Shown: positions 11,489 to 25,054 of the stretch, piece by piece
How positions within the stretch are numbered: position 1 is the stretch's first letter
Layout: each line of letters starts with the position of its first letter
DNA from: Escherichia phage A73
Sequence record: OP778609
Length of the DNA: 64,000 nt
Direction: 5' to 3' (one strand)
The notes under the pieces: model-generated
The model's input: the letters and a program-made list of their open reading frames with translations, nothing else
Told to the model about the DNA's origin: nothing
The model's database searches: none
Translations under genes and position numbers: made by a program

Positions 11489-11533
11489 AACTTTTATCAA
11501 GTAGTACAAATCAAACAAAGAGAGAATACAATC

Positions 11534-11773: not shown

Positions 11774-11787
11774 AAAGAAAAAAGTAG

Positions 11788-11816: not shown

Positions 11817-11866
11817 AATCACATCAGGCGGGGAATGGCCCCGCTAAAAGAGAAGAGAGAAATCAA

Positions 11867-12196: not shown

Positions 12197-12210
12197 TATT
12201 AAAAAAGTAG

Positions 12211-12239
12211 TTGACTGAAAGAGTATAAAGAAGTAAGAT
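12211..12239 (+). promoter_or_regulatory. sigma70 promoter TTGACT-17-TAAGAT with leader hairpin
   Basis: hairpin GGGGGAACATTTCCCCC (about 12253-12269). Confidence 0.55.
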
Positions 12240-12294
12240 AATTAACGAATAGGGGGAACATTTCCCCCGTAAACAAAAGAAAGAGAGATTAAAA

Positions 12295-12477
12295 ATGACA
12301 GAACTGATTGCAACTACAAAGATCGAAGGCGTTAACGATGTTACTTTGTCCTATGATCCTTCTACTCTGGTTTATGTTGTGAAATATGGCAGAATGATCG
12401 CAGAACTTGATTGCATTGATGAGGCTTTCGAAAAATATTTCGAACTTATCAATATTGCTTATGATGACTACCGTTAA
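12295..12477 (+). CDS. hypothetical protein (60 aa)
   Basis: ATG with AGAGAGA RBS. Confidence 0.5.
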   Translation: MTELIATTKIEGVNDVTLSYDPSTLVYVVKYGRMIAELDCIDEAFEKYFELINIAYDDYR

Positions 12478-12507
12478 TATACAACGCAAAAATAGGAAGG
12501 TGATAAA

Positions 12508-12717
12508 ATGATCAATGAAAAAACAATCAATGACGTTCGAGAGGAAGTTTTAGCCGTTGCCGTAGAATCTGGCGCACGTCAGGCATTTTGGAAAGCTACT
12601 GATCTTTACCCTGAGCAAGCCGAAAATATTCTCAATCAGGTCAGCGTTAAACTTGAACAAATGGGAAAACTGAAAACAAGTGAGCGCCTCGACCAAATCA
12701 TTAAAGAAAGTTTTTGA
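12508..12717 (+). CDS. hypothetical protein (69 aa)
   Basis: ATG with AGGAAGG RBS. Confidence 0.5.
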   Translation: MINEKTINDVREEVLAVAVESGARQAFWKATDLYPEQAENILNQVSVKLEQMGKLKTSERLDQIIKESF

Positions 12718-12781
12718 TTGACTTTTAACATTGCCCCTATTAGTATTCAGGGGCAAGATTAAAAGAAACAAGGACACAAAG

Positions 12782-13093
12782 ATGAACGATATTGTTAGCA
12801 TCATAGGTTTACTGGGCATAGGTTACATCGCCACATCAATTACAATGAGTTACTTCAATAAAAGGCGTGATAAAATGTTTTGTTACTTTGAGTATCGTTA
12901 CCGTGGTAAGGTTGGATCATCCCGTGACTATGGTCCGATGTTAGAGATTGATGCGGTTGGCGCTATGCAGTATCGCCAGTCACTAGGGGCTGAAATAATT
13001 TTTGAAGTGTACCGCAGTACAGAAGAAGAGATCCACGACATTATTGACGAGCGTCAATATTACCACGAACAACAAACTAAACGCAGGGCTTAA
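12782..13093 (+). CDS. membrane protein (103 aa, 1 predicted TM)
   Basis: internal ATG of track ORF 12731 preceded by AAGGACAC; hydrophobic IVSIIGLLGIGYIATSITM. Confidence 0.5.
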   Translation: MNDIVSIIGLLGIGYIATSITMSYFNKRRDKMFCYFEYRYRGKVGSSRDYGPMLEIDAVGAMQYRQSLGAEIIFEVYRSTEEEIHDIIDERQYYHEQQTKRRA

Positions 13094-13096
13094 CAT

Positions 13097-13237
13097 ATGA
13101 CTAATACAAACCGACAAAAAATCATCAAAACTAAAAAACTTGATTTCGATACTTATCAAGAATGTAAGAAGAAGAAAGTAAAAGATAAGCGAGAGAACAA
13201 GCGGCACGAATGGATCACTAATACAATCGATCTTTAA
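13097..13237 (+). CDS. small Lys-rich protein (46 aa)
   Basis: ATG 3 nt after upstream stop; below track cut-off. Confidence 0.35.
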   Translation: MTNTNRQKIIKTKKLDFDTYQECKKKKVKDKRENKRHEWITNTIDL

Positions 13238-13244
13238 CAATCAA

Positions 13245-13271
13245 GGCCCGCTATAATGTGGGCCTTTCTTT
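13245..13271 (+). terminator. rho-independent terminator
   Basis: GGCCCGC-TATAAT-GTGGGCC stem followed by TTTCTTT. Confidence 0.7.
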
Positions 13272-13284
13272 ATGGAGAACAGAC

Positions 13285-13512
13285 ATGATTAATATTCTTT
13301 CACTTACAGAAGTGATCCGCTTCCTCAAAAACAACGCCCTGGGAACGTCTATAACGTATCTAATCCCTCAAGGTAAGGATTATGCCAGTGTTACACGTTC
13401 AATCACTGCTACGGCCTCCAGAGAAGAAATAAAGGTCAGTGTAAGCCAATTGCTCATCGTTGATCCTTCCTCCTGTGAAACAATCCAGGCTGTAAAGATA
13501 ATTAGAAAATAA
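13285..13512 (+). CDS. hypothetical protein (75 aa)
   Basis: internal ATG of track ORF 13258 preceded by GGAGAA; avoids overlap with terminator stem. Confidence 0.45.
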   Translation: MINILSLTEVIRFLKNNALGTSITYLIPQGKDYASVTRSITATASREEIKVSVSQLLIVDPSSCETIQAVKIIRK

Positions 13513-13525
13513 TTTAAAAAACTTA

Positions 13526-13554
13526 TTGCATCCATTATCGAGAAGATGTACATT
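13526..13554 (+). promoter_or_regulatory. sigma70 promoter TTGCAT-17-TACATT
   Basis: hexamers preceded by A-tract. Confidence 0.45.
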
Positions 13555-13597
13555 AGTTTCATCAAGACGAGATGAAGATAACCCAAAGGTGATTGCT

Positions 13598-13891
13598 ATG
13601 TTATACGAAGTTTTTGCAGGTTTCTGTTTTTATGGTGCTGCCGCCGTTCGCCAGTGTGATGACTATGTAGTTGAGTCATTCGATGATCCTTTGGCGTGTG
13701 AGATTGTTACTACAGCTTATGAGCAAGATCGCCGTTGGATTAATCCAGCCTGTATCGCATCGCCTGAGGTTGAACCTATGCCGGAAGGTGAGGAATTAAC
13801 AGAGGAAGACTTGCAAGAAGTAAAAGAAGTTATGAGCTACATGATTGATAATCTGGACGCTGAAAACTTACAACGTGCATTGCAAAAATAA
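13598..13891 (+). CDS. hypothetical acidic protein (97 aa)
   Basis: internal ATG of track ORF 13526 preceded by AAAGGTG. Confidence 0.5.
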   Translation: MLYEVFAGFCFYGAAAVRQCDDYVVESFDDPLACEIVTTAYEQDRRWINPACIASPEVEPMPEGEELTEEDLQEVKEVMSYMIDNLDAENLQRALQK

Positions 13892-13905
13892 TTTTAAAAA
13901 AGTAG

Positions 13906-13934
13906 TTGACTCGAAGAAACAAAACAATTAAATT
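13906..13934 (+). promoter_or_regulatory. sigma70 promoter TTGACT-17-TAAATT with leader hairpin
   Basis: near-duplicate of promoter cassette at 11788; hairpin GCGGGGAATGGCCCCGC (about 13947-13963). Confidence 0.6.
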
Positions 13935-13978
13935 AATCACATGAGGCGGGGAATGGCCCCGCTGAACAAAAAGAGATT

Positions 13979-14359
13979 ATGAAAATGGCTAAAAATACTA
14001 ACGTTTGTGATTACGCTGATCTGGTTACTCTGAATGCAGATTCTAAAATCAACCTGTCAAACGTGGAAGCGGTGCACGTCCTGGCCCGCCGCTGGTTCCA
14101 AAAGTTATATGGTAATACTTATTTCTCTTTAAGTGTAGATGTGGAGATCGCTGGTAAATTGGTAGAAGTAGTTAACGTCCCGTTTAAATATGGTTATGGT
14201 GATCATTTCGATACCGTGGCACTGGAAGAATTTAGCAAGGTTATCAACATGGAAGGAAAAGAGTTTTCAGAGTATAGTTACCTTTCCCGTTTTTGCCGTG
14301 ACAATAACATCCCTGTTTATTCGAACGCTGTTGATGTTAAACGCAAAAAAGATATGTAA
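13979..14359 (+). CDS. hypothetical protein (126 aa)
   Basis: ATG downstream of promoter and hairpin. Confidence 0.6.
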   Translation: MKMAKNTNVCDYADLVTLNADSKINLSNVEAVHVLARRWFQKLYGNTYFSLSVDVEIAGKLVEVVNVPFKYGYGDHFDTVALEEFSKVINMEGKEFSEYSYLSRFCRDNNIPVYSNAVDVKRKKDM

Positions 14360-14365
14360 TTATTA

Positions 14366-14392
14366 TTGACAGTACATAGAAAACAAGTAAAC
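14366..14392 (+). promoter_or_regulatory. sigma70 promoter TTGACA-15-TAAACT with leader hairpin
   Basis: hairpin GCGGGAACACTTCCCGC (about 14408-14424). Confidence 0.5.
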
Positions 14393-14446
14393 TGTATTAC
14401 ATAGAAAGCGGGAACACTTCCCGCTTATATTCCAGGAGTAAGAGAA

Positions 14447-14698
14447 ATGATCGAACAAATCAAAACTACGACGGCTAATGTAACGGGTACAGTATCGCAC
14501 TTCATTAGTGATGAATCACGGGGCGTTCCTTATTGTGCAGTACATATAAACAAAAATGGCGACTACTGGTTAACGGCGTATGGATCTTATTCTTTCGGAC
14601 GTAGTGCACACCAAAAGATCCTAGATAAAGTACAGCCAACGGGTAAAAATATTACCGCTGAGATGTTTAATAAATCACTTGCAAAGTTAAAAGCGTAA
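14447..14698 (+). CDS. hypothetical protein (83 aa)
   Basis: ATG with CAGGAG RBS. Confidence 0.55.
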   Translation: MIEQIKTTTANVTGTVSHFISDESRGVPYCAVHINKNGDYWLTAYGSYSFGRSAHQKILDKVQPTGKNITAEMFNKSLAKLKA

Positions 14699-14706
14699 AG
14701 TATAAT
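14679..14706 (+). promoter_or_regulatory. sigma70 promoter TTGCAA-16-TATAAT with leader hairpin
   Basis: overlaps 3' end of ORF 14447; hairpin GGCGGGGAGTGTTTCCCCGCC (about 14718-14738). Confidence 0.55.
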
Positions 14707-14759
14707 ACATCACATCAGGCGGGGAGTGTTTCCCCGCCACAAAACGAAAGGCCAACAAA

Positions 14760-14930
14760 ATGAAAGCAAGCATGATGGTAGCGACTGTAAACATTATCAT
14801 TGGTAACGGAACTGGACACCACGAAATCATAAAAAACAAGGCTTACTCTATTAGCTCCCTCAAAAACGACATGCGTTTATCTTTGGGCCAAATCCGCGCT
14901 TACTTTCGTGAAGGCTATCAGAAAAAGTAG
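14760..14930 (+). CDS. small protein (56 aa)
   Basis: ATG with GAAAGG RBS downstream of promoter and hairpin; below track cut-off. Confidence 0.4.
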   Translation: MKASMMVATVNIIIGNGTGHHEIIKNKAYSISSLKNDMRLSLGQIRAYFREGYQKK

Positions 14931-14941
14931 CAAATTAATAG

Positions 14942-14970
14942 TTGACGCAAAGGTCATTTTAATTTAATCT
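14942..14970 (+). promoter_or_regulatory. sigma70 promoter TTGACG with weak -10
   Basis: consensus -35; -10 ambiguous (TAATCT or TTTAAT). Confidence 0.4.
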
Positions 14971-14998
14971 ATAACAAATCGACAAATGAGGCATAATC

Positions 14999-15301
14999 AT
15001 GTTTACCAAAGCAAATGAGTATTTCTTTTTAGATTTACTTGATGAAAGTATCTTTGTAGCTATGGGCAAAAAGTCAATGGTCTTTAAACGCAAAAAAGAT
15101 AATGGTGAATTTGAAGATAGCGAAGCCGTGCTAACAGTCAAGGAAGGTAAAGAACCTGCAACGTCTGTTTTAATCTACACCTTGACCAACGGCGGTGAAG
15201 TTATCGCATCAGGTAGTAGCCATCCGATCCCAAAATCGGAAGTGAACACTGTAATTATTGGTTTTGTTGCAGCTTGTTTCTACGAGGAAAAAAGCAAATG
15301 A
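14999..15301 (+). CDS. hypothetical protein (100 aa)
   Basis: ATG with GAGG RBS. Confidence 0.55.
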   Translation: MFTKANEYFFLDLLDESIFVAMGKKSMVFKRKKDNGEFEDSEAVLTVKEGKEPATSVLIYTLTNGGEVIASGSSHPIPKSEVNTVIIGFVAACFYEEKSK

Positions 15302-15462
15302 ATCCGCAAAATTTATCTTATGTAAACTGGCCCAATAAGGCTGAGAAGAAAGAAAACTTGAAACGTCTGGTTAACTTTTATCGTGAAGCTGGTCATAGTA
15401 AAGTAACAGCGGTTAAAATGGCAAAGCGCCACCTTAACAAGCCAAGTACTAAACTAATTTAA
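15298..15462 (+). CDS. hypothetical basic protein (54 aa)
   Basis: ATG overlapping upstream stop (ATGA). Confidence 0.45.
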   Translation: MNPQNLSYVNWPNKAEKKENLKRLVNFYREAGHSKVTAVKMAKRHLNKPSTKLI

Positions 15463-15470
15463 AAAACTTG

Positions 15471-15500
15471 TTGACGTTGGCTTGTGCCGTACCTATAATG
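15471..15500 (+). promoter_or_regulatory. sigma70 promoter TTGACG-18-TATAAT with inverted repeat spanning -10
   Basis: TGCCGTAC-CTATAATG-GACGGCA palindrome encloses the -10 hexamer. Confidence 0.55.
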
Positions 15501-15534
15501 GACGGCATAGGCAAACGAAATAGGATTTATAGAA

Positions 15535-15741
15535 ATGAAAAAGAAAATTGTATATAATATTATTAGCTTTATCGCAACTATCCTCCTGGCTATTGCTGGT
15601 CTATCTTTGATTGTTGCAGTAGGATCTCTGTTTCCTGGGGCAATAAGTATTAGCATAGCTTTCGCCGCATTGTCTGTTTTTACAGGGTATGCAGGGATTA
15701 AAGTTACTTACTGGTCAGAAGATTACAAATATTCAAACTAA
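15535..15741 (+). CDS. small membrane protein (68 aa, 2 TM)
   Basis: hydrophobic IISFIATILLAIAGLSLIVAV and ISIAFAALSVFTGYAGI. Confidence 0.55.
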   Translation: MKKKIVYNIISFIATILLAIAGLSLIVAVGSLFPGAISISIAFAALSVFTGYAGIKVTYWSEDYKYSN

Positions 15742-15754
15742 ATTGAGGTGTAAG

Positions 15755-15904
15755 ATGTACAAGCTATTAACCTGGGAAACAGAATCATCGTCACCGATCA
15801 GCCGGACCTTTTTTGATTTGTGCACGGCTTACAGGCTGGCAAAGGGAGGATATCATAAGGCCCAAATCATTGATGAATTTAATGTTATCCTTTATGAATT
15901 TTAA
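15755..15904 (+). CDS. hypothetical protein (49 aa)
   Basis: internal ATG of track ORF 15689 preceded by GAGGTG. Confidence 0.35.
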   Translation: MYKLLTWETESSSPISRTFFDLCTAYRLAKGGYHKAQIIDEFNVILYEF

Positions 15905-15951
15905 TCAATTCATACACTTAAAAGAAAGTTAGAAAAAGTTTTAAAAAGTGG

Positions 15952-15980
15952 TTGCAACAGGTATTGGATAGTAGTATAGT
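15952..15980 (+). promoter_or_regulatory. sigma70 promoter TTGCAA-17-TATAGT
   Basis: hexamers preceded by A-rich tract. Confidence 0.5.
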
Positions 15981-16033
15981 ACTTTCAACGGGGCGAGATG
16001 GCCCAAAACGAAAAAACTTGAAAGGTGATTATC

Positions 16034-16126
16034 ATGATGGCAATTTTCTTAGTTTCTCTTCTGGTTGCTGTATGTTCTGCCACTGCTGCCGCTGTACTTT
16101 ATGACACTCGCTACAATGAGGAATAA
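16034..16126 (+). CDS. tiny hydrophobic peptide (30 aa)
   Basis: ATG with AAAGGTG RBS; single TM-like segment; speculative. Confidence 0.3.
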   Translation: MMAIFLVSLLVAVCSATAAAVLYDTRYNEE

Positions 16127-16131
16127 TAAAA

Positions 16132-16350
16132 ATGAATATTGTCAACATTACAGGTAAGACCGAGATCCTTAAGAATCTTGCACCAGGTGAGTCCACCGTA
16201 TGGATCTGCAAAGATGGAGAAGTAGAAAAACAAATGAGATTGTTTACCGCTATTTGTTGTCGGTTAAACATGAAAGTTACACAAATCCGGTCGATGATTG
16301 TTAGTGTGGGAAACATTCCGACTGAATGCATAATTCTTACAAAGATTTAA
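16132..16350 (+). CDS. hypothetical protein (72 aa)
   Basis: ATG; RBS-like GAGGAA 12 nt upstream. Confidence 0.5.
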   Translation: MNIVNITGKTEILKNLAPGESTVWICKDGEVEKQMRLFTAICCRLNMKVTQIRSMIVSVGNIPTECIILTKI

Positions 16351-16357
16351 AAATAGC

Positions 16358-16385
16358 TTTACAACAACGATAAAATCAGTACAAT
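16358..16385 (+). promoter_or_regulatory. sigma70 promoter TTTACA-16-TACAAT
   Basis: hexamers upstream of ORF 16427. Confidence 0.45.
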
Positions 16386-16426
16386 ACAAATCAGGCAATA
16401 AAGCCGACTAAAGAAAGGTAAAGACC

Positions 16427-16666
16427 ATGCAAACTATTATCACTAAATTTCTTCCTCCTACTAATACCCGTGGCGCTCGCATCAAAGCAAAATGTTGGTT
16501 GACAGATATCACTATCGCCTATCCGGTAGCCGAGATCAACGAAGCCCATAAACTGGCGGCAGAAGTGTTAATTACAAAATTGAAGATGACAACAGATATT
16601 GATTGGAATATCGTTGCAAGCGGTGAAACACCGGACGGCAGCGGCTACGCTTTCATTATCAAATAA
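16427..16666 (+). CDS. hypothetical protein (79 aa)
   Basis: ATG with GAAAGG RBS. Confidence 0.55.
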   Translation: MQTIITKFLPPTNTRGARIKAKCWLTDITIAYPVAEINEAHKLAAEVLITKLKMTTDIDWNIVASGETPDGSGYAFIIK

Positions 16667-16683
16667 TCATAAAGCGGCGGGAA

Positions 16684-16702
16684 TAGTTCCCGCCTTATTA
16701 AA
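16684..16702 (+). other. orphan leader-type hairpin GGCGGGAATAGTTCCCGCC without promoter
   Basis: same stem-loop class as promoter-proximal hairpins, located between stop of ORF 16427 and RBS of ORF 16721. Confidence 0.6.
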
Positions 16703-16720
16703 GAGAAAAGAGAAGATATC

Positions 16721-16999
16721 ATGACTATTACTAAATTATCCACCGAAGAGATCACCAACATTCTGACTACTAATCTTGAAGATTGGAAGCGTGAAGCTGA
16801 TTTGCAAGCAACCTGTAAGCTGAATACAGAGCTAACATCAGACGATATTGAAACGATCGTCCATGCTGATTTCTATGATGCTTTGCATGATGATTCTATC
16901 ATCCTTGAAACGATGCTAGATAATGCCTGGATTAATCCCGATTTGGCGGCGTATGGTCGTAGCACCTTTATCACTATCCACAATATTTATAACCGTTAA
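16721..16999 (+). CDS. hypothetical protein, paralog A (92 aa)
   Basis: about 50% identical to ORF 17671 (MTIxKLSTEEI..LTTNLExWKREAD..ITIHxIYN). Confidence 0.6.
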   Translation: MTITKLSTEEITNILTTNLEDWKREADLQATCKLNTELTSDDIETIVHADFYDALHDDSIILETMLDNAWINPDLAAYGRSTFITIHNIYNR

Positions 17000-17126
17000 G
17001 AGGCGATAAATGGTCCTGTAACAGCCTAAAACGGCGAAAGTATGCAATCACCTTACTTGACGATATTCTACGCACTGGCTTACACTGGGGCTTTTAAAAG
17101 GGCACAAAATAATTCGAAAAAAGTAG

Positions 17127-17154
17127 TTGACGGCAATTAATAATCTGGTAAAGT
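17127..17154 (+). promoter_or_regulatory. sigma70 promoter TTGACG-16-TAAAGT with leader hairpin
   Basis: CACGTAAG start; hairpin GGCGGCAATAGCGCCGCC (about 17167-17184). Confidence 0.6.
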
Positions 17155-17201
17155 GTACCACGTAAGGCGGCAATAGCGCCGCCATTAAAGAGATAAACGA
17201 A

Positions 17202-17588
17202 ATGAAACAAGAAATCATCAATGAAATTATTAGCGGTTACAAAGAAGCCTTTATTTTCGCTGAATCAGCAACAGATCAGCACGGGGAGTATATCGATAAC
17301 CTTGATCCTTATGACTTCTCCCAGGATGCAAACGACCGGATCGCCCAGGATGTGACAGCCTTTATCAATGCTAATGTTGCCGCTATCTCTGAAGCGATGA
17401 GCGACGGCGCTACAGCCAACCAGATCGGGAATGATTTACATTTTACCCGTAACGGTCACGGTGTAGGCTTTTGGGATCGCCCTGAAATATACACCACTAA
17501 CACGGCTAACCGTTTGAGCAATGCCGCTAAATTAATGCCTAACGTGTCAGCTTACATTGGGAAAGATAATCTGATTTATATTGAATAA
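17202..17588 (+). CDS. hypothetical protein (128 aa)
   Basis: ATG with AGAGA RBS. Confidence 0.6.
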   Translation: MKQEIINEIISGYKEAFIFAESATDQHGEYIDNLDPYDFSQDANDRIAQDVTAFINANVAAISEAMSDGATANQIGNDLHFTRNGHGVGFWDRPEIYTTNTANRLSNAAKLMPNVSAYIGKDNLIYIE

Positions 17589-17594
17589 AAAGTA

Positions 17595-17622
17595 TTGACA
17601 AGCTGAATCAACCTGATAAGAT
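17595..17622 (+). promoter_or_regulatory. sigma70 promoter TTGACA-16-TAAGAT with leader hairpin
   Basis: CACATAG start; hairpin GGGGCGACAAGCGCCCC (about 17633-17649). Confidence 0.55.
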
Positions 17623-17670
17623 GTATCACATAGGGGCGACAAGCGCCCCGCCTAACAGAGAGATAGAATC

Positions 17671-17949
17671 ATGACCATCGCCAAATTATCCACCGAAGAA
17701 ATCGAACAAGTGTTAACTACTAACCTGGAACAATGGAAACGTGAGGCAGATATACAATCAGCAAAATGGCTTAACGAGAAGTTAACACCGGATGATCTGA
17801 GTAAGATTATAGATCCTCAATTCTATGAAGATATTCACGACACGGCGTTATCCGTTGAGGATGTACTCGATAAGCATTACATTGCTACTGATTTGCAGGT
17901 TTACGGGCGTAAAAACTTTATTACTATTCACGACATTTACAATAACTAA
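17671..17949 (+). CDS. hypothetical protein, paralog B (92 aa)
   Basis: paralog of ORF 16721. Confidence 0.6.
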   Translation: MTIAKLSTEEIEQVLTTNLEQWKREADIQSAKWLNEKLTPDDLSKIIDPQFYEDIHDTALSVEDVLDKHYIATDLQVYGRKNFITIHDIYNN

Positions 17950-17984
17950 GGGCGGCAACGCCCTACAACTAAAAGGGTAATATT

Positions 17985-18179
17985 ATGACGTTAGCAACAT
18001 GCACCGGATCAAAAATTGCTTGCTTTGAGTTTATGGAAGACTATGAAACGACAGCTATCACCGATCAATATATCACCGTGATCACGCGTGACGGTATCGC
18101 CTGGCATGTTCCGGTTTATGATGGGGATACCTATGAAGTCACCGACAGCGGCGGCAATACAGCTATCTTTGTTGTCTAA
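17985..18179 (+). CDS. hypothetical protein (64 aa)
   Basis: ATG with AAAGGG RBS; preceded by hairpin GGGCGGCAACGCCC. Confidence 0.5.
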   Translation: MTLATCTGSKIACFEFMEDYETTAITDQYITVITRDGIAWHVPVYDGDTYEVTDSGGNTAIFVV

Positions 18180-18192
18180 GGGGGGAAACACT

Positions 18193-18420
18193 ATGCACAA
18201 TAACATCATTACCGATCGTGCCGCTACTATGCGCCCTGGCGATCGGGCACGTTTACAGATCGGCGCTTATCCGTTCCCTACCTATGACTTTTGCAAAGTA
18301 ACCGCTATCGAAAACAATCCCTTTGATCCTGATACCGTGATCATCTGGTACGAAGGAAAGGGAAATAAATTTGAAGACATTTTGGGGCGGGATGAGCATA
18401 TCAATATTATTCGTTACTAA
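18193..18420 (+). CDS. hypothetical protein (75 aa)
   Basis: internal ATG of track ORF 18088 preceded by GGGGGG. Confidence 0.5.
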   Translation: MHNNIITDRAATMRPGDRARLQIGAYPFPTYDFCKVTAIENNPFDPDTVIIWYEGKGNKFEDILGRDEHINIIRY

Positions 18421-18538
18421 TCGCCACCTAACAGCCTAAATAGTAGGAGGCAATGCAATCCCCTACTCAATGAGAATGGAGCGCCCTGGCTTATGCTGGG
18501 GCGTTCTACGTTACAGCAAAATAATTTTAAAAATACAC

Positions 18539-18567
18539 TTGACGTTCGCCAGGTGAGCGGGTATATT
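18539..18567 (+). promoter_or_regulatory. sigma70 promoter TTGACG-17-TATATT with leader hairpin
   Basis: CACGTAGG start; hairpin GCGGCAATAGTGCCGC (about 18580-18595). Confidence 0.6.
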
Positions 18568-18616
18568 TTATCACGTAGGGCGGCAATAGTGCCGCTCACT
18601 GACTGGAGCTATCATT

Positions 18617-19018
18617 ATGGCCTTTACAATCACCTCTTACACTGACGTTGCCAACATTGCTAAAACTTTCGGCCCTGAAGCCCTTAAGTATGCGGTATCC
18701 AATGGTAAACTAACGAAAGAGCAATGTTACCTGATTGGAAGCTGTAAACGTTGGGCGGCATCTCGTAACATCGAGATTGAAAACGTAAATGATGGTAACA
18801 TCGAGTATAGCGTTGATGCAGTATTCAAGGCCGTGTATTTGGGCGGTATCTACAATACCAATCTTAATGATGTTCGTATCGTTCGCACTGGTTTTGGGGC
18901 TTATGATGTTCCAGTCCGCGAAGCTATGGAAAAAGGTTATATTAATCCAGCTATTTTAAGTATGATCATGACTGAGGCCAAAGAACGTAACGAAGTACGG
19001 GCCATCCTGGGCCTGTAA
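18617..19018 (+). CDS. hypothetical protein (133 aa)
   Basis: ATG with GGAG RBS. Confidence 0.6.
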   Translation: MAFTITSYTDVANIAKTFGPEALKYAVSNGKLTKEQCYLIGSCKRWAASRNIEIENVNDGNIEYSVDAVFKAVYLGGIYNTNLNDVRIVRTGFGAYDVPVREAMEKGYINPAILSMIMTEAKERNEVRAILGL

Positions 19019-19039
19019 TGAAATATTAATCGAAAACTA

Positions 19040-19067
19040 TTGACACGGATCGTCAATATGCTAATAT
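19040..19067 (+). promoter_or_regulatory. sigma70 promoter TTGACA-16-TAATAT with leader hairpin
   Basis: CACGTAGG start; hairpin GCGGCAATATCGCCGC (about 19080-19095). Confidence 0.6.
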
Positions 19068-19122
19068 TTATCACGTAGGGCGGCAATATCGCCGCTCACC
19101 CCTTAAAAGAGCGAGATCTAAA

Positions 19123-19338
19123 ATGGCGTTAACAAAACAAGAAATCATCGACCGCATCAAAGAGTCAACTGGCGAGAATATTGGTAATGGTTTAATTGTT
19201 AAAGTTCTTGATTATTCAAATAATCCCCTGGCACCGGAACCAGTGGCTTACAAATTATCCTGGATATCCGTATTTAGTGGTAAGCGTACAAGATGCGTAT
19301 ACTATCCGAACACCGTGGGGCGTCAGTACTGTAAATAA
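19123..19338 (+). CDS. hypothetical protein (71 aa)
   Basis: ATG downstream of promoter and hairpin. Confidence 0.5.
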   Translation: MALTKQEIIDRIKESTGENIGNGLIVKVLDYSNNPLAPEPVAYKLSWISVFSGKRTRCVYYPNTVGRQYCK

Positions 19339-19398
19339 AGGGCACTTTAATATTAATAAGGGGCGGCAACGCCCCAGGTCAACCAAAGGGAAACAACA

Positions 19399-19605
19399 AT
19401 GAGTATTGCAATGATTAGCTCATCCGACATTAAAAAGGCTTTATCTGTATTGCGCTATCACCATAGAAGGAAGGTAATCAATGACGAGAGCTATCTAGAT
19501 TCATCGTTAGAAAGCGATACGTTGGAAGCCATTTCAAAATTATCTGATTTGCATAAACGCATGACCGAAAGCAACCGATCCGACTTCATAGGGGGCGAAA
19601 TATGA
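19399..19605 (+). CDS. hypothetical protein (68 aa)
   Basis: ATG with AAAGGG RBS; starts MSIAM like next ORF. Confidence 0.5.
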   Translation: MSIAMISSSDIKKALSVLRYHHRRKVINDESYLDSSLESDTLEAISKLSDLHKRMTESNRSDFIGGEI

Positions 19606-19862
19606 GTATTGCAATGTTAATCAATACCGTAGAAGAGGCGAAAGCATTAAAGTTACGTGTTGAACTGATTGATCAACCAGGTGGAGATCTCCTTGTACAA
19701 ATCTATCCCCCAAAGGATGATTCTGGCGCTTATGATTGGTGCTACTCTGACACGTTCGAACAAGTAGACATTAAAGCAATAACATCATTTATCAACAGGG
19801 CTATACTTGAGCAAACGATAGAACTTAACGGGATGTTAAAAACACCCTGGCACATTTACTGA
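19602..19862 (+). CDS. hypothetical protein (86 aa)
   Basis: ATGA overlap with upstream ORF. Confidence 0.5.
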   Translation: MSIAMLINTVEEAKALKLRVELIDQPGGDLLVQIYPPKDDSGAYDWCYSDTFEQVDIKAITSFINRAILEQTIELNGMLKTPWHIY

Positions 19863-19873
19863 GTTCGACAAAA

Positions 19874-19900
19874 GGGCTTGACTTGTTCAGCCCTTTTTTG
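19874..19900 (+). terminator. rho-independent terminator
   Basis: GGGCT..AGCCC stem followed by TTTTTT. Confidence 0.7.
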
Positions 19901-20026
19901 CTATTCTTATCAAACGGGCGGCACCTGGGAACAGGGGGAGGTAATCACTGGACGACTCCGCTATACAGTGATAGTAAATAGCTATCAATAATCTCCAAAA
20001 ATAAAATAAAACCTATCGAGTCTTTA

Positions 20027-20055
20027 CAATTCTTTCTGTTGACACAACAACCGCA
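20027..20055 (+). promoter_or_regulatory. sigma70 promoter TTGACA-17-TATTAT driving an ORF-free transcript
   Basis: no ORF longer than about 10 codons between 20062 and 20340. Confidence 0.5.
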
Positions 20056-20341
20056 TTACAGTATTATTTATCTCGTAGGGCAGCGAAGCAGTGATGTAAA
20101 GTAGTTACTCTATGATGTAAGTTCTGAGAAGTCGAATCCGATAAAGTATCAGAAAGTTTCTAAGTTTTCGAATCGTCCAGATGAAAAAGGCTGGCAAGTG
20201 TTGAGAAAGGGCACGTTGAGTAAGTCCTGAACAGGGGCGCTCCTAGACACCTTCTACTGAGATTGCGATCGAAGTGTTAAACTGTGAGAAACAAAAGAGC
20301 GCTAGGAAAGAAAGAAACAAGAAAAGAAGTTAAAAAGATTG

Positions 20342-20370
20342 TTGACACAAAAGTAAGTTGTATACTATTA
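20342..20370 (+). promoter_or_regulatory. sigma70 promoter TTGACA-17-TATTAT
   Basis: followed by CTCGTAGGGCA start and ORF 20416. Confidence 0.5.
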
Positions 20371-20415
20371 TATCTCTCGTAGGGCAAACATTCAAAACAT
20401 CAAAAAGGGTACAAA

Positions 20416-20691
20416 ATGTTACAACTTAACGCTAAATTAGACAAAGAAATCACTGAATTTTGGGATATGGTAGTAGCTACTGATGTGGACGGTGTAGCAA
20501 GTCCTTACCTCAATAACATCGAGTATCACAATGTTGCCGCTATCAATGCAGAACACAAAGAGAAAGGCGGTGCTGATAAATTTGCTAAAAGCAATGGCTT
20601 CACTGATGCTAATCACATGATGCAATCAGTATTGTGGCAAGCTCAAGAAGATTTCGAAGAAAAAACTCTTGAATTTGCCAGACGCTCATAA
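20416..20691 (+). CDS. hypothetical protein (91 aa)
   Basis: ATG with AAAGGG RBS. Confidence 0.55.
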   Translation: MLQLNAKLDKEITEFWDMVVATDVDGVASPYLNNIEYHNVAAINAEHKEKGGADKFAKSNGFTDANHMMQSVLWQAQEDFEEKTLEFARRS

Positions 20692-20746
20692 TAGAATAAT
20701 CAAACGGGCCGAAAGGCCCACTAACTGACCTAACAGGATTAACATC

Positions 20747-21016
20747 ATGAATCGCATCGACCAGCTTAAAGTAGTTCAGCATATGGCTTACCGTATCCTT
20801 GAAGTTCAGAAAGGGAGCAAAAAAGAAGTATGTGAGAAGGCTTATAAGGTATTCAGCCACAAAGCTGATGATTGGAAGTTGCAGAAAGTCAAAAAGGCCG
20901 ATATCCTGGGCTACCTTGAGGATGAGATCCGCCTTGCGGAGCAAAAACAGATTCGTCGTGATGAGGCAGAACATAACCAGGCCTGGCAGGAGTGGTTTAA
21001 AGGGTATACTAAGTAA
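20747..21016 (+). CDS. hypothetical protein (89 aa)
   Basis: ATG with AGGAT RBS; charged coiled-coil-like. Confidence 0.5.
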   Translation: MNRIDQLKVVQHMAYRILEVQKGSKKEVCEKAYKVFSHKADDWKLQKVKKADILGYLEDEIRLAEQKQIRRDEAEHNQAWQEWFKGYTK

Positions 21017-21025
21017 TATCGAAAA

Positions 21026-21055
21026 CGGGGGGTTATATGCCCCCTTTGTAAATAT
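21026..21055 (+). terminator. hairpin GGGGGG-loop-CCCCC plus T-rich run
   Basis: inverted repeat then TTTGTAAATATT. Confidence 0.45.
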
Positions 21056-21079
21056 TCCATTAATTTACAATTCCCTCTA

Positions 21080-21109
21080 TTGACAAGAAAGTCAATTTTG
21101 CAGTATAGT
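21080..21109 (+). promoter_or_regulatory. sigma70 promoter TTGACA-18-TATAGT
   Basis: hexamers upstream of ORF 21150. Confidence 0.5.
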
Positions 21110-21149
21110 TATATCTCTAGCAGCAAACAACAAAACAAAGGACAACGAC

Positions 21150-21569
21150 ATGAACATCAAATCAACTAATCCGGCTTACTCTTTCGATAACGCTTTTTGT
21201 CACGGTAGTGCCGCCAAAGGTTTTGAAATTGATGGTAAACTGGTTATCGTCAATGTTGATGGGGAAGAGGTTGCAGTTTATCCAGTGGCAGACGTTAAAA
21301 GCCGTTTACAATGCCGCATGGATGTTAACGAATACCGCCTTGATCCGGTTCGTGTCGTTGCCCTGGTACTGGAAGAAGAAATTAAAGCAATGCAGCACAG
21401 CAACAAATTTATCGGCGATGCACAGGACAACATGAAAGTAAGCCGCCACAAAGTTAATGAAGCACTGAAAGATTTTGGCTTTAAAGATCTAGTTATCAAA
21501 CGTGATGAAAAATTTCGCTTTCGTAATGATCTGGCAAATCGCTACTATGAAATCTATGAAGCACTTTAA
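21150..21569 (+). CDS. hypothetical protein (139 aa)
   Basis: ATG with AAAGGA RBS. Confidence 0.6.
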   Translation: MNIKSTNPAYSFDNAFCHGSAAKGFEIDGKLVIVNVDGEEVAVYPVADVKSRLQCRMDVNEYRLDPVRVVALVLEEEIKAMQHSNKFIGDAQDNMKVSRHKVNEALKDFGFKDLVIKRDEKFRFRNDLANRYYEIYEAL

Positions 21570-21585
21570 GAGGTAAGACAACAAG

Positions 21586-21608
21586 GGGCCGCAATAGCGG
21601 CCTTTTCT
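21586..21608 (+). terminator. rho-independent terminator (GGCCGC-AATA-GCGGCC + TTTTCT)
   Basis: same GCAATAG-loop hairpin class as leader hairpins, here with a U tract; T tract abuts next -35. Confidence 0.55.
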
Positions 21609-21609
21609 A

Positions 21610-21638
21610 TTGACACCTGCTAATCATTCCTTTAATAT
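21610..21638 (+). promoter_or_regulatory. sigma70 promoter TTGACA-17-TAATAT
   Basis: followed by CTTGTAGGGCA start. Confidence 0.55.
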
Positions 21639-21689
21639 GTACCTTGTAGGGCAAGCAATAACGCAAGCCCATAAATAGGACAAACTATC

Positions 21690-21887
21690 ATGACCATCGC
21701 TAATGAACTGATCGCTGTATTGAATGAAGCCAAATCTAATCAGATCGATGTACAGATCAAAGAATTGCCCAATGGCCTGATCGGTTGCACTTGCACCTGC
21801 TTCGGAAGTGACTACACAGAGGTAAGCTCTCTAGAATCTCTCATTCGTCACTTGAAATCAATAGTTGAAGATTGGAGAATCATCTAA
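21690..21887 (+). CDS. hypothetical protein (65 aa)
   Basis: ATG with AGGAC RBS; last gene of + block; followed by hairpin GGGGCCGCAATAGTGGCCC. Confidence 0.5.
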   Translation: MTIANELIAVLNEAKSNQIDVQIKELPNGLIGCTCTCFGSDYTEVSSLESLIRHLKSIVEDWRII

Positions 21888-22503
21888 TCAACCAGGGGCC
21901 GCAATAGTGGCCCTTGTCATATCCATCGGCGTGACTCTCCCAACTCTATTAATCCCTTCCCCATTTGGATCATCATAACTTACCTCATCTAATCATTAAT
22001 CTAATCCCCTTTGGAATCTCTCCCCCACAAATCTAAACTAATCTGATAGCTTACCATAACATAATCCACAAAGAAAGAACTATTTTGCCCACAATGAAAG
22101 GCAGTTTTAAAGAGATACCATTGCCAGAGTATGGAGGTGGCGCGACCGTAGGGAGCGACACTATAAAACGAGTATACCCCTCCTACCGCTATGCGGTCAT
22201 CGGTGATAACCGATATCGTTACACGCTATCTGTTCTCTTCGTTTCCTCGTTTTATAGTGTCTATATGTAGTAATCTTTTATTCTTTGTCAATACATTATC
22301 GAAGATAATATTGAATTATTTAATGCTTTGTTATTCATATAAAGTGAATAGCTAGTCAATAGGAAGGCCGTTAGTGTGACCACACAAAGAGGCTATGCAC
22401 CACAAAGAGAGGCCGTACTTGCCCACAAAAGGAGCAAACAAGCAAGGCGGTACGCCAGTTTGCTAATGAGCGTAGCTCTTTTGCTAGACAAAACTCTCTT
22501 CTC

Positions 22504-22661
22504 TCTTCTTTCCCAAAATAAATTTTTTCTTGCTTTTATTGCCAGAGTATGGCGGGGGGAATGTTGAAAAAATAGATCTTGACTGGTCAACATACGATAC
22601 ATCCTATCTTCTTTCCCAAAATAAATTTTTTCTTGCTTTTATTGCCAGAGTATGGCGGGGG
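22504..22661. repeat. two perfect 55-bp direct repeats spaced 103 bp apart
   Basis: TCTTCTTTCCCAAAATAAATTTTTTCTTGCTTTTATTGCCAGAGTATGGCGGGGG at 22504-22558 and 22607-22661; related partial copy TTGCCAGAGTATGGAGGTGG near 22120. Confidence 0.85.
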
Positions 22662-23022
22662 CGCTCAGGCTATTGATGGCCCTGATGGAGTCGCTCCTGT
22701 ACAGTTGGAATAGTTCACAGTTGGATAGTAACAAGTTGGTATTATTCTTCCCACAAGTTGGAGCAGGCCAGAACTGGCGGGGCTTAGAGTCGCCTCACTT
22801 GTTGGACTGGAAGGAGGGCGCTTGCGGTGCGTATAAGTTGTATTATGTTAAATGCAGATCGAAATCGGTATTCTAAACCAGATTCAGAAGTCAATAGAAA
22901 TCTTTAACTTTATTGTTGGGGCAGCACAACATTTTTCTTGACAAGTCGAATCAAAGATGTATTGTGGATTGAAAATAAATGAAGATAATGCTTGACTTCT
23001 TGGATATTTTGAAAACATCGGA

Positions 23023-23039
23023 CCCCCTCCCCCTCCCCC
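23023..23039. repeat. poly-C tract CCCCCTCCCCCTCCCCC
   Basis: 17-nt C-rich run in an otherwise AT-rich non-coding region. Confidence 0.8.
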
Positions 23040-23346
23040 ACGGTCGCCGTGCCTGGCAGCAGTGCCAACGCACTAGACAAAAAAGATGCTTTCTTGCTGA
23101 CGAAGAACAAGGTCAACAGACAACAGACAAGGCTGGTTAGACTGGTTAGCCTCTTCAGGCCAGTACCCTTTGGATATATTTGGGCAGGTACAGAAAAGGA
23201 CCCACCCCGTCATTAGTGACTCAAAATTTTGGCGGGAGGGTAAAATAACTAAAAAGTGGTCGTTTAAAATTCAGGCTGGAGGTCCACTCAGAGTAGACGT
23301 ATACTGGAAATTATAAACTACAAGACGAGTGGATGTATGGACGTGA

Positions 23347-23504
23347 CTCCGTGGCATGAATGCCACTCTGTGGACAATAGGCATTACTCTGTGGCAAGAG
23401 AGGAGCCTCTGTGGACAATCGGAGTGCCTCGATAGGCAGAATGGACTTGACTCTGTGGGCAAAGTAGTGTGTCTCAGTAGGCCAACAGTGGTTACTCTTT
23501 AGGC
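23347..23504. repeat. array of 8 degenerate CTCYGTGGRCAA repeats at about 21-bp periodicity
   Basis: copies start near 23347, 23366, 23387, 23407, 23428, 23451, 23473, 23496; core TGTGGACAA is 8/9 match to complement of DnaA box (TGTGNATAA). Confidence 0.7.
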
Positions 23505-23515
23505 AAACTACCTAA

Positions 23516-23684
23516 TTTTGGGATGAACTGATATTTGTGGGAATCATTGTACGATATTTGGGCATTATTGTAGGTGGAGTACAACAGTTTGGAAGGACGA
23601 TATAGTTTGGTGGGCACAACATTTTGGGATGAGCAGATGAGTTTGGTTGCAATCCAGATGCAAAAAGCACCCACTTTTGGGGTG
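23516..23684. repeat. array of about 9 degenerate TTTGGGR-type repeats at about 20-bp spacing
   Basis: TTTTGGGA, TTTGTGGGA, TTTGGGCA, TTGTAGGTGG, TTTGGAAGG, TTTGGTGGG, TTTTGGGAT, TTTGGTTGC, TTTTGGGGTG; contiguous with the previous array. Confidence 0.6.
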
Positions 23685-23701
23685 CTCTCTGTAGTTCAGG
23701 A

Positions 23702-24100
23702 TCATACAGCCAGTCGTCTGAGGGCATACGTTGGATTGTCAATGTCAAATAGATTGACAAGCTTAACAATTCTGTAGCTCTGGGCTTTTACTGACTTGTA
23801 TTGAGATTTATCTTTATCTTCTTGAAGGATGATAGATTCAATTCCGTTATCATAGGCGTACTCAAGGTAGCTCTGAGTAAACCCAAGGGCATCTGCATCC
23901 TTCTTGGCTATTTGGTAGATAAATTGTTGCTCTGTGCCGTCATAAATTACCTTCTTGTCTTTCGGTTCTATATAGATTCTACGTGCAGAGCCAGAACCAA
24001 TCTTCTGTTCTTGTTCTTTACGTTTTTCGGCCTCTTCTGCCAAAGATTTCCGTGTACCATTCCAACGATGCGCGATTTTATTTACCATTCCGGCCTCCAA
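23702..24100 (-). CDS. hypothetical protein (132 aa)
   Basis: first gene of minus block; charged; start codon not verified. Confidence 0.5.
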   Translation of the reverse strand: MEAGMVNKIAHRWNGTRKSLAEEAEKRKEQEQKIGSGSARRIYIEPKDKKVIYDGTEQQFIYQIAKKDADALGFTQSYLEYAYDNGIESIILQEDKDKSQYKSVKAQSYRIVKLVNLFDIDNPTYALRRLAV

Positions 24101-24324
24101 GTGATATCAACTTTAATTTCTACCTGTGCCAACACGAAAGGACGTTCATCACCACTGAAGTTATGTCGCCAATCCGTCTCCCGAATGTCCAGACAGTCTT
24201 TACTCTTAACATCGTAGAACGTAAACGTCCCCGACTTCCTGAACACTTCGTCATTAGGGCCGTCCACATGACCGAAGTAGGCCCCTCTTTTAATTTCCTG
24301 AAAGTTATAGTGTGCCATGTTCAT
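24082..24324 (-). CDS. hypothetical protein (80 aa)
   Basis: ORF in contiguous minus-strand operon. Confidence 0.5.
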   Translation of the reverse strand: MNMAHYNFQEIKRGAYFGHVDGPNDEVFRKSGTFTFYDVKSKDCLDIRETDWRHNFSGDERPFVLAQVEIKVDITWRPEW

Positions 24325-24329
24325 CCTTA

Positions 24330-24524
24330 TCAGTAGTATTCATATTCATCACCCTTGTACCATGAATCGTAACCTTCATTGTGGGTGTATAATTTAGTTG
24401 GTGTTTTCTTTGTCTGATCTTTAGAGAACAATGCCGTGCCGTCCTTAAGGAATCCAGCAGCTTCCTCTCCTTTTACGACGACACGACCTTTCTTTTTCCA
24501 CTCTTCAAATGTACGGTATACCAT
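24330..24524 (-). CDS. hypothetical protein (64 aa)
   Basis: internal ATG (MVYRTF..) of track ORF 24330-24578, chosen to abut upstream stop. Confidence 0.4.
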   Translation of the reverse strand: MVYRTFEEWKKKGRVVVKGEEAAGFLKDGTALFSKDQTKKTPTKLYTHNEGYDSWYKGDEYEYY

Positions 24525-24525
24525 A

Positions 24526-24735
24526 TCACTTCTCTCCCTTCTCCGCTTCGTCTGCTGCGGCGATAAGTGCTGCCGCAAGCTTACGTGCTGCCTCTGGTGT
24601 ATAGTACATTAATGTATTTCCTTCTTCATATTCATCGGGATTGAAGTCTACAGAGACGAGGTTACCGACCCCAGACTTCTTGATGCTAACCTCGGTTTCG
24701 TCGAAATCAACGTCTTCAATGCGTACAGTTTTCAT
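24526..24735 (-). CDS. hypothetical acidic protein (69 aa)
   Basis: ORF; Ala-rich C-terminal helix. Confidence 0.5.
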   Translation of the reverse strand: MKTVRIEDVDFDETEVSIKKSGVGNLVSVDFNPDEYEEGNTLMYYTPEAARKLAAALIAAADEAEKGEK

Positions 24736-25054
24736 AGTAATTTCCTCTTTATTGTCGATAGGGTAATTATGATTTAAACCCTGATGTTAAGTGCTCACCA
24801 AGTGCCCCACTGACCCTTCTTTGTGTCAGTGTGATTCATCGTCCTTTCTCCATAATGTCCACCATAATCATGGAGAACGCCAGTATCAGTAATGGTAGCG
24901 CGATCACTACCCCAGCAGTCATCATAGTTGCTCCAGAGCCGACAGCACGGCGACGGATGCGAGTAACACCAAGATAATGCCCCAGGTCAAGTAATGATAC
25001 CAATTAGGCCATAAAAGGTAGTCACAATTCTCCCAACGGGCGTTCGGGTTATCG

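Follow-up and report, generated by a model that had tools for sequence, protein, structure and literature searches.

A dense array of short direct repeats occupies the gene-free region in which two transcription blocks of this phage converge. We conclude that it is conserved and non-coding, is not described in the literature consulted, and is best filed among the iteron-like repeat arrays; it lies within the 'non-coding' box of rV5-like phages. Our preferred reading, to which we give a probability of roughly 40%, is that it forms an iteron-like array of putative protein-binding sites on DNA, for the control of replication or packaging. From the evidence below we infer protein binding, action at the level of DNA and not of RNA, and replication as the process concerned. 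The general idea of iteron-like or co-operative binding, put forward in an earlier note on this DNA (the original prediction), fits best.

rV5-like phages are among the coliphages isolated most often and are candidates for therapy. To our knowledge, their origin of replication and pac site are unmapped and their small terminase is not identified. Since 2013 their gene-free region of 1.5-2.5 kb has been labelled 'non-coding' and nothing more, and the array provides a defined place within it where the start of replication or packaging could be looked for. Because the array is the most regular feature of the region and is under selection, it could serve as bait for a protein that acts there. For specialists we judge it to be of moderate interest: a handle on where these phages start replication or packaging, and not a surprise.

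The source phage is an E. coli myovirus of the Vequintavirinae, Septuagintavirus-like, whose closest records are W70, A7_1, A5-4, UPEC06 and LTH01; A5-4 has been assigned to the genus Septuagintavirus. T5-like phages, with which the original prediction proposed a comparison, were therefore the wrong reference. In the window, by which we mean the whole 64-kb stretch of DNA that was analysed, a + strand block with about 18 strong sigma-70 promoters and many small genes closes with a final gene that ends at 21887. Facing it is a - strand block of genes for nucleotide metabolism and replication that encodes NrdA, NrdD, thymidylate synthase and a polymerase exonuclease subunit and ends at 23702. 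The array sits between these two gene ends, as expected from its predicted placement at a convergence point, and the cumulative GC skew reaches its maximum at the array region.

The 1.8-kb gap between the blocks holds no conserved ORF. A conserved 139-aa gene lies upstream of it, and the same gene precedes ORF-free gaps in rV5_ev168 (2.5 kb) and phAPEC8 (1.5 kb). On the published rV5 map the corresponding place is a grey box marked 'non-coding', for which no function is offered, and changes of GC skew in that phage coincide with switches in the direction of transcription (PMC3606486). The rV5 box and the array region are thus alike in their position after the 139-aa gene, at a switch of transcription and GC skew. 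They also share a module, CTCTTCAGG / GATATTTGTGGG / GACTCC / GGCGGGGAGG, and the long hairpin. Two papers on Septuagintavirus mention neither the gene-free region nor the repeats. The features of the region are collected in Table 1.

Table 1. Positions, in the window, of the array and of the elements around it
Feature	Position	Strand	Structure	Remarks
ORF-free region	21890..23700		1.8 kb, array at right end	matches the 'non-coding' box of the rV5 map in position
Long hairpin	22157..22261		16-bp closing stem	stem kept by compensatory changes in three lineages
Sigma-70-type promoter	22938..22965	+	TTGACA-16-TATTGT	directed at the array
Conserved module	23151..23242	+	CCTCTTCAGG ... GATATATTTGGGCAGG ... 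GTGACTC ... TTGGCGGGAGGGTA	upstream of the array
Type-A array	23345..23508	+	8 direct repeats, core CTCNNTRG(G)C(A)A, 20-23 bp apart	sequence, HMM and shuffles
Type-B array	23513..23655	+	7 direct repeats (A-Y-A-W-Y-A)-TTTGG(G), 16-31 bp apart	G-rich strand
Small hairpin	23647..23663		TTGCA-ATCCAGA-TGCAA	between array and terminator; invariant in 8 genomes
Intrinsic terminator	23662..23690	-	GCACCC-ACTTTTG-GGGTGC	of the 128/132-aa gene; inverted repeat and - strand fold
128-aa ORFan gene	23702..24088	-	132 aa from a TTG start	adjoins the array; in array-bearing genomes only

A check of the sequence confirmed that the predicted repeat array is present at its coordinates, and at the same time changed the description of its units. 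Two consecutive families of direct repeats lie on the + strand (23345-23655), giving about 15 units in one orientation throughout. The CTC of the type-A units starts at 23347, 23367, 23388, 23408, 23428, 23451, 23473 and 23495, so that successive spacings are 20, 21, 20, 20, 23, 22 and 22 bp; ACTCTGTGGACAAT, GACTCTGTGGGCAAAG, GCCTCGATAGGCAG and TACTCTTTAGGCAAAC are examples. CTCYGTGG is common to five of these eight units, and the remaining three read CTCGATAGGC, CTCAGTAGGC and CTCTTTAGGC. The eight type-A units of the original prediction are therefore all there, but its strict consensus, CTCYGTGGRCAA, fits only three of them (23367, 23408 and 23451).

In the type-B family, TTTG lies at 23516, 23535, 23557, 23588, 23606, 23622 and 23642 (successive spacings of 19, 22, 31, 18, 16 and 20 bp). 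TTTGG(G) is invariant and is preceded on its 5' side by a flank resembling A-Y-A-W-Y-A, as in GATATTTGTGGG, GATATTTGGGC, ACAACAGTTTGG and ACAACATTTTGGG. The + strand of this half contains 45 G against 17 C. An eighth TTTTGGGG, at 23675, falls within the stem of the terminator of the - strand gene. A block of TTTGGGR-type units had been predicted, and it exists; it comprises seven units with looser spacing, rather than about nine at a spacing similar to that of the first block.

The array is real and beyond chance, a conclusion that is statistically solid. Self-matches of 4-mers at lags of 19-23 number 37, against 7.5 +/- 3.4 expected from 500 dinucleotide shuffles, and none of the 500 reaches the score of the array; the periodicity thus stands up to the shuffle control that had been suggested for it. 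When the halves are taken separately, the observed value is reached by 0 of 500 shuffles for type A and by 4 of 500 for type B. In a sliding scan of the whole 64 kb with the same statistic, the top-scoring 200-bp segments are those of the array. Counts of the motifs themselves are equally far from expectation: CTCNNTRG occurs 8 times against 0.1 in shuffles, TTTGG 6 times against 0.6 and TGTGG 5 times against 0.6, and in each case none of 2000 shuffles reaches the observed count. We also built a type-A HMM from the units of this phage and of related genomes. Across the 64 kb it finds just the eight sites, at 8.3-13.2 bits, with the next best at 4.9.

The two halves differ in how their units are placed on the helix. 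Neighbouring type-A units follow one another in step with a helical repeat of 10.5 bp (Rayleigh R = 0.79, mean phase +4 degrees, p = 0.008), whereas type-B spacing is irregular with respect to the helical repeat (p = 0.25). The earlier suggestion that all sites lie on one face of the DNA is in keeping with the spacing of neighbouring type-A units, but not with that of type B. One mark of an iteron-type origin is a set of at least three direct repeats in the same orientation, about two helical turns apart, and the eight type-A units have this arrangement. A helical phase kept over long range was considered and rejected: hand-placed anchors gave R = 0.67 at 10.5 bp, whereas anchors set by regular expression gave 0.2-0.46, with a coherent peak in no genome.

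The array does not encode protein. All six frames contain stops in seven of seven genomes, the longest open frames differ from genome to genome, and the unit spacings are not multiples of three. The ORFs that overlap the array had been taken for translations of the repeats, and this judgement was sound. Coding in related phages, which the original prediction had named as a finding that would speak against it, is likewise excluded by the stops in all seven genomes. Annotation of small hypothetical genes here, as found in some records, should accordingly be avoided.

Besides the source phage, there are seven carriers of the array: five phage records and two Logan contigs, one of which ends inside it. 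Type-A copy number is eight in the source phage and one Logan contig, six to seven in four phages, and three in LTH01; in three of the four phages with six to seven type-A units, a 149-bp insertion lies inside the array. Because LTH01 has only three, most type-A units appear to be dispensable. Natural variants with three to eight units are well suited to a dosage comparison.

Such plastic copy number and tolerance of an insertion are what might be expected of a neutral feature, produced by slippage expansion of two motifs in a tolerant zone and acting at most as a passive buffer for transcription. The restriction of the dense array to one small clade is in keeping with this, as is the composition of the - strand of the type-B half, which with 45 C and 17 G is like a Rho loading zone. 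The pattern of substitution makes neutrality improbable in our view. The type-B half is near-identical in eight genomes, with its TTTGG cores invariant, although the adjacent protein falls to 80% identity. Type-B substitutions occur as patches of 5-7 nt immediately 3' of the TTTGG cores, and one complete 21-nt type-B unit is present or absent among the relatives. Variation avoids the motif cores, in which 9 of 91 columns are variable (10%), as against 26 of 86 (30%) in the spacers (Fisher P = 0.001). Over the same six genomes, variable columns make up 13.4% of the array, compared with 31.7% of third and 11.1% of first and second codon positions of the adjacent gene, so that the third codon positions exceed the array in variability by a factor of 2.4. 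Since cores and array vary little while whole units are gained and lost, these data point to purifying selection on the motifs combined with modular length.

The motifs themselves appear to be older than the array. The module upstream of the array contains single copies of motifs resembling both unit types, and recognisable versions of it exist both in the rV5 lineage and in a third one, represented by an IMG/VR locus (L009). Type-A units resemble CTCTTCAGGC, and unit 8 (CTCTTTAGGC) is one mismatch away from it; type-B units resemble GATATTTGTGGG. In the regions of the rV5 lineage, CTCTTCAGG occurs five to six times on one strand. There, unlike in the source phage, the motifs are dispersed, in 1-6 copies, without a dense array of 21-bp period, and a search with the type-A HMM gives no hits. 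These resemblances suggest that two motifs of long standing in the subfamily may have been amplified in tandem, in this clade alone, to give the dense array.

By blastn, the array has no similarity to any of 72,556 plasmids or 5,426 E. coli genomes, and we therefore rejected an origin from host or plasmid. Scans of IMG/VR and of metagenomes with invariant 19-26-mers yielded no further relatives. A gapped two-unit pattern gave 16 matches, at least one of which is tied to an rV5-like contig.

The helical phasing of type A favours a role at the level of DNA, because phase is meaningful for a duplex and not for RNA. The alternative, which we consider unlikely, is that the array acts within a transcript of about 700 nt, running from the promoter at 22938 to the hairpin at 23667-23685, and that its 15 exposed, G/U-rich repeats capture an RNA-binding protein in many copies, as a sponge or scaffold. 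Every repeat is on the strand that this promoter would transcribe, and the array terminates at the hairpin. The promoter hexamers are kept while the spacer varies, with four substitutions in one relative (L012), and the tract CCCCCTCCCCCTCCCCC (23023-23039) lies downstream. The only ORF behind the promoter (22979-23140) is not conserved. We rejected it as a gene, its length being 36-54 aa among relatives and its first ATG being lost in LTH01; differences within its conserved N-terminal part alter amino acids. That a conserved promoter is aimed into the array counts against a reading in terms of DNA only.

Other properties of the putative transcript fit an RNA role less well. Folding of the + strand gives z = +1.07 relative to shuffles, that is, no excess of structure and no hairpins at the units. 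The predicted lack of structure would keep the motifs accessible, but a display of motifs in stem-loops is missing. The - strand gives z = -1.7, which we attribute mainly to the terminator hairpin, and stable RNA structure was rejected as an explanation on these grounds. A search of positions 20000-27000 against Rfam (E <= 1) returned nothing relevant. The terminator has its U-tract on the - strand. It might act on + strand transcripts too, although its U-tract in that direction is poor.

In the W70 genome the promoter is separated from the array, which is intact, by an inserted HNH_3 endonuclease gene with a strong terminator, situated about 60 nt before the array. If that terminator works, the W70 array is beyond the reach of transcripts from the upstream promoter. 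Finally, an RNA role leaves the spacing of type-A units by two helical turns unexplained.

The best-known sponge RNAs provide a direct comparison. Like CsrB and RsmZ, the array consists of many short repeats, lacks ORFs, and is preceded by a promoter and followed by a hairpin. Unlike them, it has no enrichment of GGA (11 against 7.5 expected; A-N-GGA 2 against 2), no stem-loops that present the motif, and no Rfam match. Because GGA is not enriched, it is not a CsrB-like sponge. A more elaborate version of the RNA reading, in which a long, unstructured, G/U-rich transcript from the early-type promoter uses its 15 repeats to sequester or organise an RNA-binding protein of host or phage origin, with the neighbouring conserved hairpin as a second, structured RNA, strikes us as less probable still. 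If true, it would represent a protein sponge encoded by a phage, with a motif unlike that of any known sponge RNA.

Several units bear some likeness to DnaA boxes, and weak binding of host DnaA at many sites might in principle recruit DnaA to a phage origin or titrate it from oriC. The TGTGG core corresponds to the CCACA part of the box. At least seven of nine positions agree in 7 of the 15 units, against 13% of random 21-mers, and eight of nine agree in two units, against 1.7%. The original prediction had described TGTGGACAA as an 8/9 match to the complement of the DnaA box. This is correct, but it applies to two units only (TTGTCCACA; sites 23369 and 23410); five others match at 7/9 and the rest at 6/9 or lower, and none of the array units contains an exact TTWTNCACA. 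Moreover, the high-affinity box in E. coli is TTATCCACA; TTGTCCACA has that role in Mycobacterium tuberculosis and Streptomyces coelicolor (PMC4285127). Any DnaA box would leave out both the CTC prefix and the A-Y-A-W-Y-A-TTTGG flank, which are what is invariant in the units.

Nor are DnaA-like 9-mers enriched in the non-coding region of the source phage (7 against 4.6 expected, P = 0.19). With neither a consensus unit nor such enrichment, the suggestion that these are DnaA sites is weak, and we regard action through DnaA as very unlikely. The sister regions are different: 9-mers within one mismatch of the box are enriched in rV5 (14 against 4.6), phAPEC8 (9 against 2.9) and L009 (18 against 5.9). 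L009 has three perfect TTATCCACA boxes within 40 bp, as well as a long AT-rich tract. Those boxes precede the shared module by about 600 bp, whereas the array of the source phage follows it. DnaA may thus act somewhere in the region in some lineages; the array itself, judged by its motifs, is not a DnaA-box cluster.

Low-affinity DnaA arrays at oriC have a spacing of about 11 bp. What the array has in common with the DnaA-box clusters of oriC and datA is the TGTGG core, the two 8/9 units and the single orientation. It departs from them in having no consensus box, in its 21-bp period as against about 11 bp, and in its unrelated flanks.

According to our preferred reading, that of an iteron-like array on DNA, a sequence-specific protein would load co-operatively along the duplex onto about 15 sites of two kinds, in a manner resembling the loading of initiator proteins on plasmid and phage iterons. 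The array would belong to a large gene-free control region between two convergent early/replication blocks, and its likeliest job would be to start or control replication of phage DNA. The region has several origin-like features: direct repeats, an early-type promoter, the long conserved hairpin and, directly after that hairpin, an AT-rich tract of 80 bp (22260-22339, 20% GC). This is the only strongly AT-rich tract, and it is about 1 kb from the array, yet within the same non-coding region.

Iterons are known from P1 oriR/incA, F, RK2, pSC101 and lambda ori. The array is like them in comprising direct repeats of one orientation at a centre-to-centre distance of about 21-22 bp (two helical turns), each with a conserved core beside a variable remainder, in varying copy number and in a non-coding setting with an AT-rich tract and a promoter. 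It is unlike them in several respects. No Rep gene is recognised nearby, the array joins two motif families head to tail, 1 kb separates it from the AT-rich tract, it is flanked by convergent rather than divergent transcription units, and none of the 72,556 plasmids matches. Some of these points count against an origin, namely the lack of a recognised initiator-like protein, the distance of the AT-rich tract, and inward transcription together with the skew peak. Because both flanking blocks point inward, a terminus would be expected here rather than a bidirectional origin. The irregular spacing of type B, the lack of a robust long-range helical phase, and the existence of LTH01 with three type-A units also count against our preferred reading.

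Among lytic phages, T4 oriE has iterons and RepEB, and the terminal repeats of T7 are adjoined by arrays of short repeats. As in those cases, the array consists of short direct repeats in non-coding DNA of a lytic phage; theirs lie near an early promoter (T4 oriE) or a site of concatemer processing (T7). Its repeat lengths and sequences are different, no homologous proteins were found, and rV5-like phages are reported to be without fixed ends.

A precedent is offered by the large lytic myovirus ICP1, which has one of the DNA polymerases most closely homologous to that of rV5 (PMC3606486). The origin of its satellite PLE has iterons that are bound by RepA and form one of several repeat families in a non-coding region of 2.7 kb (PMC7145576, PMC11417361), and the predicted pac site of ICP1 falls within an intergenic region of 489 bp (PMC11417361). 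The ICP1/PLE system and the array region thus both have repeat-bearing non-coding DNA, with initiator-bound iterons in PLE and a predicted intergenic pac site in ICP1. They differ in that the ICP1 and PLE functions were mapped by experiment and the PLE region lies between divergent operons; we claim no sequence similarity.

The example of ICP1 also bears on packaging, and the array might be a pac site in whole or in part, its repeats being sites at which a small terminase starts headful packaging. Phased short repeats are found in P1 pac, SPP1 pacL/pacR and lambda cosB. Two reports based on PhageTerm give vequintaviruses as circularly permuted or headful-packaged (PMC8407724, PMC13211470), although we found no published location for a pac site in this group. 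We nonetheless think a pac site a poor prospect: no terminase family matched among the searched proteins of the window, which were a subset of its genes, and the number of type-A units varies between 3 and 8 at no obvious cost.

The UPEC06 record starts inside the region, which raised the idea of a physical genome end. We rejected it because the same pair of CDSs is present at each end of the record, pointing to an assembly overlap. Other record starts within the gene-free region are explicable as assembly breaks at repeats.

The protein that would bind the array may be a host protein or, as another candidate, the product of the clade-specific 128-aa gene. In tblastn searches this ORFan was found in five phage records, which are the five that carry the array, and it accounts for just four clusters among 5.8 billion proteins. 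Its confinement to array-bearing genomes makes it a candidate trans-acting partner. It has no match in Pfam, PHROG, NCBIfam or PDB, and its AF2 model is unusable (pLDDT 44). Known initiator families found no match among the 128-aa ORFan, an adjacent 80-aa ORFan and eight other neighbours, although a DNA-binding protein of a novel kind may be among them.

A number of further identities were considered for the units and set aside. As a leader box at the +1 of early promoters, TATCACGTAGGGCGGCAA, the units score no higher than 4.4 bits with a PWM built from 10 independent promoters. Likeness to Tn7 ends or TnsB sites, the Tus Ter core, T7 primase sites, sigma-54 promoters and -10-like pauses is too weak, and the same applies to boxA, which is resembled by unit 8 alone (ACTCTTTA). 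A G-quadruplex is not indicated, the GGG runs being 17-20 nt apart, nor is a zone of R-loop initiation, G making up only 29%. We also rejected an inverted left arm of the array family at 22029-22427, where the type-A HMM gives 2.2 bits at best. TGTGG cores do cluster there on the - strand, at a spacing of 20-23 bp, as a weak side observation only.

The ORF-free non-coding region in which the type-A array of CTCNNTRG direct repeats sits holds a further element that recurs in three lineages: the window, the rV5 lineage (locus L007) and a third lineage (L009, IMGVR_UViG_3300045988_159287). In each, a long hairpin, closed by a stem of 16-18 bp, comes after a box reading ATGG..GGCGCGAC..GCGACA. The sequence of the arms differs across the three lineages and their complementarity is kept: the arms are GACACTATAAAACGAG/CTCGTTTTATAGTGTC in the window, GACATAATATAAAAGCAG/CTGCTTTTATATTATGTC in rV5 and GACATAATAACGCTGAG/CTCAGCGTTATTATGTC in L009. 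RNA-fold z-scores were -9.9 for the rV5 hairpin, -7.3 for that of L009 and -2.6/-3.1 for that of the window. As judged from sequence, the long hairpin may be a structured RNA or an element of single-strand DNA, and could act on either strand.

The 3' arm of the window's hairpin directly adjoins the AT-richest part of the non-coding region, a tract of 80 bp with 20% GC (22260-22339). Farther downstream lies a pair of 58-nt direct repeats, whose core, ATTGCCAGAGTATGG(C/A)GG, has a third copy immediately 5' of the hairpin box (22120-22143); the rV5 lineage and L009 carry other direct repeats at the matching positions. In the non-coding region of L009, a sister lineage, TGTGGATAAC, a perfect DnaA box, occurs three times within 40 bp on the + strand (7845-7884). 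A fourth box, TTTTCCACA, lies nearby, and the region also has a long, very AT-rich tract at 6940-7110.

Features of the window and of related loci
Feature	Location	Strand	Remarks
Box and long hairpin	window 22139-22261; L007 6598-6775; L009 7113-7250		
58-nt direct repeat, two copies	window 22501-22558 and 22604-22661		98% identity
Tract CCCCCTCCCCCTCCCCC	window 23023-23039		just 3' of the promoter at 22938
HNH_3 endonuclease gene	L003 (phage W70) 4364-4846		inserted in non-coding region
149-bp insertion	L002 (A7_1) 4680-4810; L003 (W70) 5015-5145; L004 (A5-4) 3045-3175		within type-A array
ATPase (phrog_1297), then two-domain protein	window 628-3476	+	
Three tandem paralogous genes, 380/414/399 aa	window 26228-29726	-	RCC1/WD40_RLD-like repeat proteins

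Among array-bearing relatives the region has received insertions. The HNH_3 gene of W70, which comes with a Shine-Dalgarno sequence of its own and with a strong terminator, takes the place of the CTCTTCAGG part of the module, the conserved motif set upstream of the array, and ends about 60 nt upstream of the array itself. In the 149-bp insertion shared by three phages, CATTGTGGAAA units and AACCAAAATGGTTT palindromes occur twice each, along with a promoter-like TTGACC. The UPEC06 record (L001 and L011) likewise has both its ends within the non-coding region, and one pair of CDSs is annotated at each of the two. Among other Vequintavirinae and Phapecoctavirus records, several have start points that lie no more than about 1-2 kb from the region. 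A likely reason for these starts and ends is assembly breakage at the repeats.

On the + strand at 9600-21700, the window carries about 18 near-consensus sigma-70 promoters (TTGACA-16/17-TAnnnT). Downstream of most of them is a conserved leader, TATCACGTAGGGCGGCAAT...GCCGC, with the capacity to fold into a 5' hairpin. This element is the one annotated in phAPEC8 as a 'PHIRE promoter'. The CCCCCTCCCCCTCCCCC tract is spanned by an ORF at 22979-23140. Because the length of this ORF varies from 36 to 54 aa across relatives, and its first ATG is absent in the array-bearing relative LTH01, it is probably not a gene.

The window holds other short repeats as well. Six TGTGG cores occupy the - strand at 22029-22427, oriented away from the + strand array and in part spaced at 20-23 bp (22384, 22404 and 22427); the type-A HMM did not recognise these cores as members of the type-A family. 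Four ACA(A)GTTGG units, spaced at 15-22 bp, occur at 22700-22770 within a non-conserved 74-aa ORF, annotated as a gene in some relatives. Elsewhere in the window, the protein encoded after the phrog_1297 ATPase combines a DUF2201 metallopeptidase-like domain with a VWA-like domain; its PHROGs label is 'HNH endonuclease'.
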